From a virus: a stretch of 11,573 nt of DNA. The translations under genes and the position numbers were made by a program. How positions within the stretch are numbered: position 1 is the first letter of the stretch; each line of letters opens with the position of its first letter. Shown here piece by piece: positions 5,456-8,336 of this stretch. Under the pieces are notes generated by a model, which was given only the letters and a program-made list of their open reading frames with translations, was not told where the DNA came from and searched no databases. The stretch lies in the UHGV virus genome UHGV-1580203; one strand, 5' to 3'.

Positions 5456-6148
5456 TTAATTATGTCTCTTAAGGGTTTGCGACTGACTGATTAAGACCTT
5501 TCCAAAGACCATGAATCGGTGTTCGTTTTCGCTAGTAATTCCCCATTCACGGTAAATCTGGTTATCAGAAATCACCAGCAGTTTGTCAGGAATCATTTGA
5601 AGTCTTTTAACGTATATTTTGTCATCAAAACCAAAGACATATATACCATCACCATCAAACTGATTGATGCTGACATCAACGAAGATGAGATCTCCTGGCT
5701 CAATGGTTGGACACATACTGTCCCCACGAACGTTGATAACTTTGATGTGATTGGCTGGTCGTCCGCCGAACATTGATACAGCATTATCAGTTCTGTATTC
5801 GATGGCATGAATCACATCAATGACATCACCGCCCTGGATAAGGCCATTTCCCGCACTGGCACTGATATCCAGCATTTCAATACGGAACACATCCTTCACC
5901 TGCGCAACATCCTCATTATTACTGTTTTTATATACAGTATTACTTTTGTGGGCAGAGGTAAAGAGATCAGCAATATCAACACCTAAGCTCTTGGCAATAT
6001 TACTCAGTGTTTGTTCGGTAAATTGTTTTTGCTTACCCGTTTCTAAGCGCGAGATGTTCGCCGCATCTACTCCTATCGCTTCAGCGAGATCGGCGATTTT
6101 CATGTTCTTCGCTTGGCGAAGTTGTCTGACTCGGTTTCCTATGTTCAT
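5456..6148 (-). CDS. cI: CI-type prophage repressor (N-terminal HTH, C-terminal LexA-like S24 autopeptidase domain)
   Basis: 230 aa; N-terminal HTH (VRQLRQAKNMKIADLAEAIGVDAANISRLETGK); C-terminal GDSM (catalytic Ser) and VKRL (catalytic Lys) motifs of the S24 family; divergent from a cro-like gene. Confidence 0.93.
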   Translation of the reverse strand: MNIGNRVRQLRQAKNMKIADLAEAIGVDAANISRLETGKQKQFTEQTLSNIAKSLGVDIADLFTSAHKSNTVYKNSNNEDVAQVKDVFRIEMLDISASAGNGLIQGGDVIDVIHAIEYRTDNAVSMFGGRPANHIKVINVRGDSMCPTIEPGDLIFVDVSINQFDGDGIYVFGFDDKIYVKRLQMIPDKLLVISDNQIYREWGITSENEHRFMVFGKVLISQSQTLKRHN

Positions 6149-6245: not shown

Positions 6246-6506
6246 ATGCAATCACCATTACGAAATGTGCGTAAGGCGCATGGTTTCACTTTGCAGCATG
6301 TTGCTGCGGGTGTTCAAGTCAATCCAGCGACGTTGAGTCGTATTGAGAGGCTGGAGCAGATTCCATCTATCGAGCTTGCAGAACGTTTAGCCAATTTTTT
6401 TAAGGGTGAAGTCAGCGAAATGCAGATTCTTTATCCGGCACGTTTTCAATCTAGCCAAAACCAGAATGGGTTTAAACCACAGGAACAGGAGGTGAACCGT
6501 GGGTAA
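6246..6506 (+). CDS. cro: Cro-like HTH transcriptional regulator (XRE family)
   Basis: 86 aa; HTH segment GFTLQHVAAGVQVNPATLSRIERLEQ; first gene rightward of the operator region, divergent from cI; GGAGG RBS. Confidence 0.88.
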   Translation: MQSPLRNVRKAHGFTLQHVAAGVQVNPATLSRIERLEQIPSIELAERLANFFKGEVSEMQILYPARFQSSQNQNGFKPQEQEVNRG

Positions 6507-7050
6507 GCATCACTGGAAAGTAGAAAAACAGCCTGAGTGGTACGTGAAAGCTGTCAGAAAAACTATCGCAGCGTTGCCGGGGGGGTACGCTGAAGCTGCT
6601 GACTGGCTGGATGTAACAGAGAACGCATTATTTAACCGCCTTCGTGCCGATGGCGATCAGATTTTCCCGCTGGGATGGGCAATGGTTTTGCAACGTGCTG
6701 GTGGAACTCACTTCATTGCTGACGCTGTGGCGCAGTCTGCAAATGGCGTCTTTGTGTCTCTTCCTGATGTCGAGGATGTGGACAACGCCGATATCAACCA
6801 ACGCCTGCTGGAGGTCATTGAACAGATCGGCAGTTATTCAAAACAGATTCGTTCAGCAATTGAAGACGGTGTAGTGGAACCGCATGAGAAGACAGCAATT
6901 AACGACGAGCTGTACCTCTCAATTTCGAAGCTGCAGGAGCATGCAGCACTGGTCTACAAAATCTTTTGCGTTTCAGAAAGTAGTGACGCCCGCGAGTGTG
7001 CAGCTCCGGGCGCCGTGGCGTGTCGTGACTGTGGAGAAACTAACGCATGA
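6499..7050 (+). CDS. CII-like or YdaT-like regulatory protein candidate (function by position only)
   Basis: 183-aa ORF starting at GTG 6499 (RBS AGGAGG upstream), overlapping the cro stop; position immediately after cro is where cII-type or YdaT-type proteins sit; the CDS is clear but the family assignment is weak. Confidence 0.75.
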
Positions 7051-7385
7051 ACAGTTTAACAACACACTACCGTCGCTCGCAACTGATTGCGCTTCCTGTA
7101 CCGGGTGGAAAAGCGAAGGTGGAGTATTGCTATGCAGTAAATGTACCAGGTGACAGGGAAATTGTAACCCACAGCTTTGCTGAGTGGGCTGTGGGTGATT
7201 TCAACCGGCAGAAGGAGACAGTCCTTTGCGACAAGTTAACCGCTGGTTCAAAGATCACTACGGAGTGCCCGTCAGAGTCATTCGTTGGGAGCCGGAAACA
7301 CAACGAGTTATCTACCTCCGCGAAGGCTATGAGCATGAGTGCTTCAGCCCGCTCGAACAGTTTCGTCGTAAATTCAGGGAAATAG
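7047..7385 (+). CDS. Hypothetical ORF (112 aa); 3' half likely not coding in this frame
   Basis: ATGA overlap with the upstream stop supports a start at 7047, but the C-terminal third ([22 protein letters not shown]) is low-complexity while an alternative frame looks protein-like from about 7199. Confidence 0.3.
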
Positions 7386-7405
7386 AGGTCGGTCATGAGC
7401 ACTAA
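7226..7405 (+). CDS. Candidate small protein (about 59 aa, TTG start) in an alternative frame, not in the supplied ORF track
   Basis: RBS GAAGGAGA at 7211-7218 then TTG at 7226; frame reads [59 protein letters not shown] to stop at 7403-7405; protein-like composition; overlaps the O-like start by 11 nt. Confidence 0.35.
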
Positions 7406-8336
7406 ATTAACCGGCTATGTATGGGATGGTTGCGCTGCATCAGGCATGAAATTATCCAGCGTGGCAATTATGGCCCGCCTGGCTGATTTCAGTAATGACG
7501 AAGGTGTGTGTTGGCCATCAATTGAAACCATTGCCCGTCAGATTGGCGCGGGGATGAGTACCGTCAGGACGGCTATCGCACGGCTGGAAGCAGAAGGCTG
7601 GTTAACGCGTAAGGCGCGTCGCCAGGGTAACCGCAATGCGTCGAATGTTTATCAGCTTAACGTTGCGAAGCTTCAGGCAGCGGCATTTTCTCAACTGTCA
7701 GATTCTGACCCGTCAAAATCTGACGCATCAAAATCTGACCCGTCAAAATTTGATGCGTCGAAATCTGGCAAAAAAGCGGGTTTTCACCCGTCAGAATCTG
7801 GCGGGGATCCGTCAGTAAAATCAAAACATGATCCGTCAGATAAAAAACCTTCTCGTCCGGACGCTTCGCAACCGGACACGCAGACGGATGAACAGGATTT
7901 TTTAACTCGCCATCCTGATGCGGTTGTATTCAGCCCTAAAAAGCGCCATTGGGGAACGCAGGATGATTTGACCTGCGCACAGTGGCTCTGGAAAAAAATC
8001 ATCGCCCTGTACGAGCAAGCCGCCGAATGTGACGGCGAGGTGGTTCGTCCCAAAGAACCGAACTGGACAGCCTGGGCAAACGAAATTCGCCTGATGTGTG
8101 TGCAGGATGGTCGTACTCACAAACAAATCTGCGAGATGTACAGCCGCGTCAGCCGCGATCCGTTCTGGTGCCGTAACGTGCTCAGCCCGTCGAAGTTGCG
8201 GGAAAAATGGGATGAGCTTTCCCTGCGCTTATCACCGTCCGTCAGCACGTACACCGAAAAACGCGAAGACCCGTACTTCAAATCCAGTTACGACAACGTG
8301 GACTACAGCCAGATCCCGGCAGGATTCAGGGGGTGA
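7395..8336 (+). CDS. Replication initiator protein (lambda O-like architecture: N-terminal HTH domain, iteron-encoded linker, C-terminal domain)
   Basis: 313 aa; N-terminal HTH-like segment (WPSIETIARQIGAGMSTVRTAIARLEAEGWL); central low-complexity linker encoded by tandem DNA repeats (see ori feature); RBS GAGG upstream of ATG 7395. Confidence 0.85.
   Translation: MSTKLTGYVWDGCAASGMKLSSVAIMARLADFSNDEGVCWPSIETIARQIGAGMSTVRTAIARLEAEGWLTRKARRQGNRNASNVYQLNVAKLQAAAFSQLSDSDPSKSDASKSDPSKFDASKSGKKAGFHPSESGGDPSVKSKHDPSDKKPSRPDASQPDTQTDEQDFLTRHPDAVVFSPKKRHWGTQDDLTCAQWLWKKIIALYEQAAECDGEVVRPKEPNWTAWANEIRLMCVQDGRTHKQICEMYSRVSRDPFWCRNVLSPSKLREKWDELSLRLSPSVSTYTEKREDPYFKSSYDNVDYSQIPAGFRG
7690..7850. repeat. 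Origin-like iteron array inside the initiator gene: four to five 15-bp tandem repeats (TCTGACSSRTCAAAA) followed by spaced GATCCGTCAG repeats and an A-rich tract
   Basis: Seen: units at 7705-7719, 7720-7734, 7735-7749, 7750-7764 and degenerate 7765-7779; CCGTCAG at 7789-7795, 7810-7816, 7834-7840; ATAAAAAA at 7841-7848. Lambda ori likewise lies within O as iterons plus an A/T-rich region. Confidence 0.7.

Follow-up and report, generated by a model that had tools for sequence, protein, structure and literature searches.

Positions 7047 to 7405 of the virus genome UHGV-1580203, examined in a window of 11,573 nt (the whole stretch of DNA that was analysed), very probably hold two genuine genes that overlap out of frame by about 160 nt in the early-right operon of an e14-like lambdoid prophage: ymfM, with 112 codons, and a gene for a 59-aa protein of the DUF4222 family nested in its 3' half. 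The shared DNA (7226-7385; 160 nt, ~53 codons) is read on the same strand in different frames, and there is evidence of selection on both, which makes the two genes an overprinted pair. The arrangement is conserved among relatives and no frameshift joins the two frames; judging from the sequence, both proteins are probably made. An earlier note on this DNA had proposed either two genes, a short one at 7047 plus an unannotated TTG-initiated small protein, or a single gene disrupted or joined by a frameshift. Its first proposal holds as to the number of genes and the reality of the TTG-initiated one, but the upstream gene is not short, its frame being open over 112 aa; its second proposal fails, because no slippery heptamer is present, the DUF4222 gene has starts of its own and the region recurs at 99% identity or more in 416 records.

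The upstream open reading frame (ORF), for which the earlier note gave a plausible start, runs as predicted (Table 1). It is identical to YmfM (b1148) of the Escherichia coli K-12 prophage e14 at 109 of 112 residues, with all three differences in the tail, and matches phrog_1170 (E 3.8e-70). Its sequence and its synteny, between ymfL and the O-like gene, identify it as ymfM, the orthologue of the K-12 'cell division inhibitor YmfM' (SfiC). Hidden Markov model and sequence searches returned no Pfam, NCBIfam or PDB relative for it.

The second frame is shifted by -1 from that of ymfM and is open from 7199, after a TGA at 7196-7198, to its TAA. The AAGGAG (7212-7217, inside ymfM codons K56-E57) and the TTG (7226-7228) to which the earlier note had drawn attention are present, separated by an 8-nt spacer, and the encoded protein matches Pfam PF13973 (DUF4222) over residues 2-53, on model positions 3-52 of 53, where it scores 67.3 bits (cutoff 27; E 8.6e-19); with such a score the pattern in the alternative frame is not due to chance. 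RefSeq, through the Prokaryotic Genome Annotation Pipeline (PGAP), places WP_001250269.1, a 'DUF4222 domain-containing protein', at exactly 7226-7405 in a 100%-matching locus and does not annotate the 112-aa ORF there. The small ORF is thus not unannotated in general, as had been supposed, but is so in E. coli K-12. For all but its last 20 nt the DUF4222 gene lies within the ymfM tail, and its stop codon is 8 nt inside the O-like gene.

In 24 lineage representatives the DUF4222 gene begins with ATG (19 representatives), GTG (four, two of them placed by eye upstream of the aligned start) or TTG (one, the E. coli lineage). A purine-rich stretch, such as GGAGG, AGGAG or GGGG, precedes the start in most of them (by eye, unscored), and in several lineages an in-frame stop stands 1-5 codons before it. 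The TGA at 7196-7198 is polymorphic, 11 of 58 variants of the locus having G, A or C in place of T7196, a change that is silent in ymfM and probably explains N-terminally extended DUF4222 proteins in databases, such as P0093 with 86 aa. In the E. coli lineage, the segment 7211-7227 can form a 6-bp hairpin (GAAGGA/UCCUUU, 5-nt loop) in which the first bases of the TTG are paired with the Shine-Dalgarno sequence of DUF4222; the segment has a z-score of only -1.4, and no equivalent was seen by eye in lineages with an ATG start.

Variation among close relatives reveals which frame is constrained where. The set comprises 76 sequences and 58 distinct variants, all above 96% identity, and is informative on polymorphism, not on divergence. 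Both ORFs are intact in all 58 variants, and ymfM has 112 aa in every one. Between 7047 and 7220 the variable sites are mostly silent in the ymfM frame (18 synonymous, 7 nonsynonymous), and those at 7202, 7206, 7211 and 7220 are silent in ymfM yet nonsynonymous or stop-creating in the DUF4222 frame. Between 7240 and 7348 the pattern is reversed: all 14 variable sites fall on DUF4222 third positions, where they are synonymous (0 nonsynonymous), and all 14 are nonsynonymous in ymfM. This switch indicates that selection changes frame at ~7221-7240, the site of the TTG. Variants synonymous in DUF4222 have a density of 0.27 per codon in the overlap, against 0.29-0.40 synonymous variants per codon in flanking non-overlapping genes, and this undiminished density leaves no visible amino-acid constraint from the YmfM tail. 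The K-12 e14 sequence conforms to the same division, differing from 7047-7405 by six substitutions in 359 nt and no indel: three lie before 7200 and are silent in ymfM, and three lie in the overlap, where they are silent in DUF4222 and alter the YmfM tail. Since all variation in the overlap is silent in the DUF4222 frame, it is DUF4222 that appears to set the sequence of the overlap. As to which frame relatives conserve, a question raised by the earlier note, the 112-aa frame is conserved as an open frame, and amino-acid conservation in its 3' half lies entirely in the other frame.

To follow the ymfM frame over greater distances, we used a DUF4222 alignment to scan genomes, one for each species, obtaining 48 loci from ~40 Enterobacterales species in which the DUF4222 proteins are 40-98% identical. 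Inspection of 45 loci by eye showed that in 43 of them the frame beginning at position 2 of the DUF4222 codons stays open through the entire DUF4222 gene. The resulting ORFs, of ~108-151 aa, start with 'MNSL...' where the CII-like gene stops, and they terminate no more than ~20 nt from the DUF4222 stop. A stop in the ymfM frame can arise only where a DUF4222 codon NTA or NTG is followed by A or G (N, any base). Synonymous resampling of the DUF4222 codons, with codon usage taken from flanking genes, predicts 1.6-3.3 such stops per locus and a probability of ~0.01-0.15 that any one locus is open, whereas 41 of the 42 loci tested have no stop before the terminal one. The third frame contains 2-10 stops per locus, as resampling predicts. 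The loci fall into 24 clusters at 85% nucleotide identity, and third-position identity at conserved four-fold residues is 0.40.

The same signal can be read from individual codons. The 24 representatives together have 137 NTN codons with A as the next base, and neither NTA nor NTG is among them. At these at-risk sites valine is written GTY in 54 of 54 cases, against 47% GTR in the background, and leucine CTY in 13 of 13 (R, purine; Y, pyrimidine). At no-risk sites NTR codons are used freely (38 of 127), and one leucine column has CTG in 14 of 18 sequences. Four-fold columns at no risk hold 47% purines and all four bases, which indicates that transversions are saturated; at-risk columns hold no purine in 48 cases. 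As a negative control, 48 distinct DUF4222 genes of the RgdR type, which have no overlapping upstream ORF, show 2-4 stops each in the equivalent frame within the domain. A Serratia DUF4222 locus without a YmfM partner likewise has three stops in the ymfM-equivalent frame; in an Erwinia locus without the upstream N-domain, that frame is nevertheless open across DUF4222. In distant relatives, the ymfM frame is kept stop-free by selection on the synonymous codons of DUF4222.

Some occurrences of the module come from records titled Vagococcus sp., Geobacteraceae metagenome-assembled genome and Martelella alba (loci L096, L107, L124, L126 and L132). They carry an enterobacterial prophage module with 52-86% protein identity and are likely the result of contamination or misbinning.

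The YmfM protein would consist of a conserved N-terminal domain of ~60 aa and a serine/threonine (S/T)-rich, probably disordered tail of ~52 aa. In an alignment of homologues down to 43% identity, the invariant columns all lie in residues 1-50, and nearly invariant columns (at least 90%) extend to D51 and C61, with none farther into the tail. Homologous N-domains in other species are 30-57% identical, very divergent but collinear. AlphaFold2 gives the N-terminal part a weak beta-beta-beta-alpha-alpha prediction, with a block-mean predicted local distance difference test (pLDDT) score of ~53-72, and scores residues 68-112 below 50. The DUF4222 protein reaches a pLDDT of 83.4 and is modelled as a small Tudor/SH3-like beta-barrel of the RgdR regulator family; sequence searches found no solved structure for either protein. 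The earlier note had described the last third of the 112-aa ORF as low-complexity. Its composition is indeed biased, S/T-rich and unconserved, but the biased part is larger than stated and takes in the last ~52 residues, nearly half of the protein. Compared with resamples conditioned on an open frame, the tail has more S/T and is less hydrophobic in 23 of 24 lineages, which may reflect selection on composition or merely an abundance of C at the third positions of DUF4222. The exception, with a tail composition in line with the null, is Citrobacter braakii (L123:1049-2203), where the ymfM frame lacks the usual stop and continues for 384 codons into downstream DNA that is not the usual one; the locus looks rearranged. 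A different departure is found in Entomohabitans teleogrylli (L220:1501-1737), where a 78-aa ORF with the YmfM N-domain and a tail of ~16 aa abuts the O-like gene, with no DUF4222 gene, and ends 11 nt inside it.

Several points weigh against two expressed genes with a selected overlap. In the papers searched, we found no proteomics, tagging or ribosome profiling showing that either protein is made, and PGAP, which uses protein-family evidence, leaves the 112-aa ORF unannotated. The short-tailed YmfM of Entomohabitans implies that the long tail is dispensable for some members of the family, and the S/T enrichment of the tail could stem from the C-rich third positions of DUF4222 instead of from selection on the tail. 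The naive product of the probabilities of an open frame, 10^-31.7, overstates the significance, as the lineages are related; six independent lineages alone give ~10^-8. Lastly, the background model of codon usage is drawn from only 18,765 flanking codons.

In the expression scheme that we propose, ymfM would be translationally coupled to ymfL through an ATGA, in which the ymfL stop (TGA, 7048-7050) overlaps the ymfM start, and DUF4222 would be made by independent initiation at AAGGAG-N8-TTG inside the ymfM message. DUF4222 would dictate the nucleotide sequence of the overlap, with the YmfM tail tolerating almost any amino-acid change. Ribosomes translating YmfM would run to its stop, 9 nt before the O-like start codon, and because both ORFs end ~12 nt or less from that start, both could feed ribosomes into the replication gene. 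Where the O-like gene begins 12 nt past the ymfM stop, the position of that stop is shared throughout the clade. A second clade has an ATGA in which the DUF4222 stop and the O-like start overlap, with the end of ymfM 8 nt farther in. Both ORFs thus terminate no more than ~12 nt from the O-like start in most lineages examined. For the ymfM stop this holds in the majority of the 24 representatives; loci L123 and L120 deviate, and the start picked by the script in L130 is doubtful. In this window, ymfM and the O-like gene are in the same frame, separated by the TAG and three codons, and read-through of the TAG would fuse YmfM to the initiator.

Why the frame is kept open across DUF4222 is a separate matter from whether it is. 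With moderate confidence, and in preference to ribosome delivery, we infer that a disordered C-terminal extension of YmfM is required. The tentative alternative is that both ORFs are translated and the YmfM tail has no peptide function, its frame staying open so that ribosomes can travel to the O-like start, for translational coupling, for protection of the messenger RNA or for unmasking of the DUF4222 start. The lack of amino-acid constraint on the tail fits that alternative, every change in the overlap (14 of 14) being nonsynonymous in ymfM while DUF4222-synonymous diversity is undiminished, as does the constant proximity of the ymfM stop to the O-like start in both clades despite its different position relative to the ATG (-12 vs +8); even the all but tail-less YmfM of Entomohabitans ends 11 nt inside the O-like gene. 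The hairpin of the E. coli lineage would moreover be opened by passing ymfM ribosomes, but it is not significant and has no equivalent seen in the ATG-start lineages. Translation of DUF4222 already brings ribosomes to the junction (through the ATGA in the second clade), so that a second route seems redundant, and the S/T-rich, less hydrophobic make-up of the tail, seen in 23 of 24 lineages, gives a hint that composition is under selection.

A functional link between the two products is a further and more doubtful step. YmfM was identified as SfiC through expression of 'the open reading frame' in pBAD24 and a ymfM deletion, expression being reported to prevent Z-ring formation and to cause filamentation (bioRxiv 10.1101/2020.11.19.390815); that paper describes no protein-level evidence, frameshift controls or stop controls. 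If the pBAD clone spans the annotated 339-bp ORF, it includes the DUF4222 Shine-Dalgarno sequence, the TTG and codons 1-53, and with them the whole Pfam domain. The original (2013) library clone holds ymfL residues 142-185, all of ymfM and ymfN residues 1-92, boundaries that include the complete DUF4222 gene, and a ymfM deletion would also remove most of DUF4222. All three constructs are compatible with a role of DUF4222 in SfiC and, as the cloned ORF and the deletion affect both products, the published ymfM experiments cannot assign the division block to one protein. That the SOS-inducible SfiC block has the nested DUF4222 protein as its cause or as a requirement, and more broadly that ymfM and DUF4222 form a functionally coupled overprinted pair, nevertheless seems to us unlikely. 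The DUF4222 literature that we found makes no mention of ymfM, and the ymfM/SfiC literature that we found makes none of a nested ORF.

The remaining explanations fare much worse. PGAP's annotation implies that nothing beyond the first ~60 codons of the 112-aa ORF is real and that its open 3' half is a chance by-product of DUF4222. The missing Pfam and NCBIfam matches, the low-complexity, unconserved tail and the omission of the ORF by PGAP would agree with this. We consider it very improbable, given a chance of openness of ~0.01-0.15 per lineage against open frames in 41 of 42 loci and 24 nucleotide clusters, and given that synonymous codons creating a stop are wholly avoided at the 137 at-risk sites yet freely used at no-risk sites, with 2-4 stops in the RgdR-type controls.

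A slightly poorer case still can be made for one gene expressed through a programmed -1 ribosomal frameshift at ~7199-7240 and giving a fusion of N-domain and DUF4222. The DUF4222 frame is indeed the -1 frame of ymfM and opens before the end of the N-domain, the two parts are adjacent in nearly all lineages, and rare fusions exist in databases (P0059, 118 aa; P0065, 119 aa, 14 members). These fused forms differ from one another at the junction, however, as separate indels would. No heptamer of the form X XXY YYZ is found at this locus or in 19 of the 24 representatives, and the sporadic matches in the other five are not conserved in position. DUF4222 has its own start in 24 of 24 representatives, usually behind a Shine-Dalgarno-like stretch and in several after upstream in-frame stops, and RgdR and the loci of Erwinia and Serratia show that it also exists on its own. 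The variants at 7202-7220, silent in ymfM yet nonsynonymous or stop-creating in the DUF4222 frame, also argue against a fusion. Two further candidates were set aside. The fused proteins P0030, P0052, P0059, P0065 and P0090 and the 63-aa forms P0063, P0068 and P0077 are rare, differ from one another at their junctions and are most readily taken for indel variants or errors of assembly, and a +1 shift at CUU UGC (prfB-like) leads into a stop-filled frame. An indel introduced by sequencing or assembly, or a frameshift that recently created a pseudogene in this prophage, has nothing in its favour beyond the frame switch itself and is refuted by the complete-genome match at 100%, the 416 records at 99% or more, the indel-free K-12 sequence, the 58 of 58 intact variants and the recurrence in ~40 species, leaving it with next to no probability.

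From the surrounding genes (Table 1), the pair belongs to the part of an e14-like lambdoid E. coli prophage that holds its immunity and replication functions; genes for PerC-family, Dam methylase, LexA-family and RusA proteins follow the O-like gene. A complete E. coli genome contains the segment 6900-7500 with 100% identity, and the locus is matched in 2,701 of 5,426 sequenced E. coli genomes, about half. Inside the O-like gene, at 7704-7767, a 15-bp unit (TCTGACCCGTCAAAA) is repeated in 4.3 tandem copies. By analogy with phage lambda, whose ori is situated within O, these units are probably origin iterons. DUF4222 genes lie directly upstream of a replication gene and overlap it in three types of element (Table 1, last three rows), which suggests that they are linked to the replication module.

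Table 1. Features of the ymfL-ymfM-DUF4222-O-like region and related DUF4222 arrangements. Positions refer to the window unless a comparison locus (L) is named.
Feature	Position	Strand	Remarks
cI-like repressor	5456-6148	minus	
cro-like helix-turn-helix (HTH) gene	6246-6506		
YmfL/CII-like regulator, 183 aa	6499-7050	+	Pfam Phage_CP76 E 1.3e-13; NCBIfam phage_reg_YmfL 169.9 bits (cutoff 90); RefSeq annotation in 100%-matching locus
ymfM, 112 aa	7047-7385	+	ATG 7047, TAG 7383-7385
Conserved N-terminal part of ymfM, residues 1-61	7047-7229	+	sole part of ymfM under amino-acid-level purifying selection
ymfM C-terminal tail, residues 62-112	7230-7382	+	S/T-rich, predicted disordered, unconserved sequence, stop-free frame
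DUF4222 gene, 59 aa, TTG start	7226-7405	+	TAA 7403-7405
Three-gene junction	7383-7397	+	TAG 7383-7385, AGAGG 7384-7388, O-like ATG 7395; O-like ATG in ymfM frame
O-like replication initiator (HTH_36), 313 aa	7395-8336	+	Pfam HTH_36 E 4.3e-11; phrog_391 'replication initiation O-like' E 2.2e-135
DUF4222 gene before lambdoid O-like HTH_36/Phg_2220_C gene	7226-8336		with YmfM partner
Erwinia DUF4222 gene before HTH_36/Phg_2220_C initiator	L125:1135-2388		without YmfM partner
RgdR (Sakai Sp7) before DUF927 primase	L139:3720-6148		P4-like element

As a stretch of lambdoid prophage the locus is ordinary and well conserved, and it is no new kind of system. Each gene is individually known; what seems unreported is their conserved, asymmetric out-of-frame overlap. 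It offers a clean natural case of asymmetric overprinting, in which one frame carries all the sequence constraint and the other is constrained only to stay open, a constraint visible as the absolute avoidance of GTR, CTR and ATA codons before A. It also ties the replication module of lambdoid prophages to a protein of the DUF4222/RgdR family. For annotation, the overlap bears on an existing conflict. K-12 MG1655 and EcoCyc have ymfM (b1148) only, with no DUF4222 gene at the locus, PGAP has the reverse, and phage records are split between 'YmfM' and a 59-aa hypothetical protein, with separate PHROGs families for the two. Both annotations are probably right, in which case about half of E. coli genomes lack one of two real genes in their annotation.

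The closest known counterpart is ymfM of the K-12 prophage e14 (Ansari et al., bioRxiv 10.1101/2020.11.19.390815), which likewise stands between ymfL and the O-like gene, with the same ATGA coupling. It differs in that the K-12 O-like gene is a pseudogene chimera (oweE/ymfN), whereas here the gene is intact. At the e14 locus (L084:2502-2681; MG1655 ~1,204,001-1,204,180) the DUF4222 protein is encoded with 100% identity behind the same AAGGAG-N8-TTG, unannotated. The one characterised member of the DUF4222 family is RgdR (ECs1581), from prophage CP-933C/Sp7 of enterohaemorrhagic E. coli O157:H7, a regulator of motility and of the type III secretion system (T3SS) specified by LEE, the locus of enterocyte effacement (Flockhart et al. 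2012, PMC3378721). It activates LEE1, represses motility and binds DNA non-specifically (PMC3378721; PMC10877973), and an RGD motif at its residues 20-22 matters for T3SS activation (PMC3378721). The two proteins are 41% identical over 49 aa (BLASTP, E 3e-11) and score 82 (RgdR) and 67 bits (59-aa protein) against the Pfam model; both are small prophage proteins encoded directly upstream of, and overlapping, a replication gene. RgdR is longer, at 99 aa with N- and C-terminal extensions, and is encoded in a P4-like element before a DUF927 primase, without an overlapping partner gene. The 59-aa protein has no RGD tripeptide; its alignment with RgdR starts at RgdR residue 24, downstream of the motif, and the preceding residues here are MRQVNRW. 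By sequence similarity it is an RgdR-family homologue, regulatory activity being reported for ECs1581 only.

Two classes of known gene arrangement resemble the pair in part. Like genes expressed by programmed -1 frameshifting, such as dnaX, the transposases of IS elements and the phage tail chaperones G/GT, it has an upstream ORF followed by a conserved ORF in the -1 frame; it differs from them in having no slippery heptamer and a second ORF with a start of its own. The other class is that of embedded out-of-frame pairs in lambdoid phages, such as Rz/Rz1 of phage lambda. In both cases two proteins are encoded on the same strand in different frames, with a separate ribosome-binding site for the inner gene within the outer one. 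Rz, however, contains the whole of Rz1, and the two products, each constrained in sequence, act together in one function, whereas here, where no functional link between the products is known, only the inner DUF4222 gene is constrained in the overlap, to which the outer ymfM contributes an unconstrained tail.

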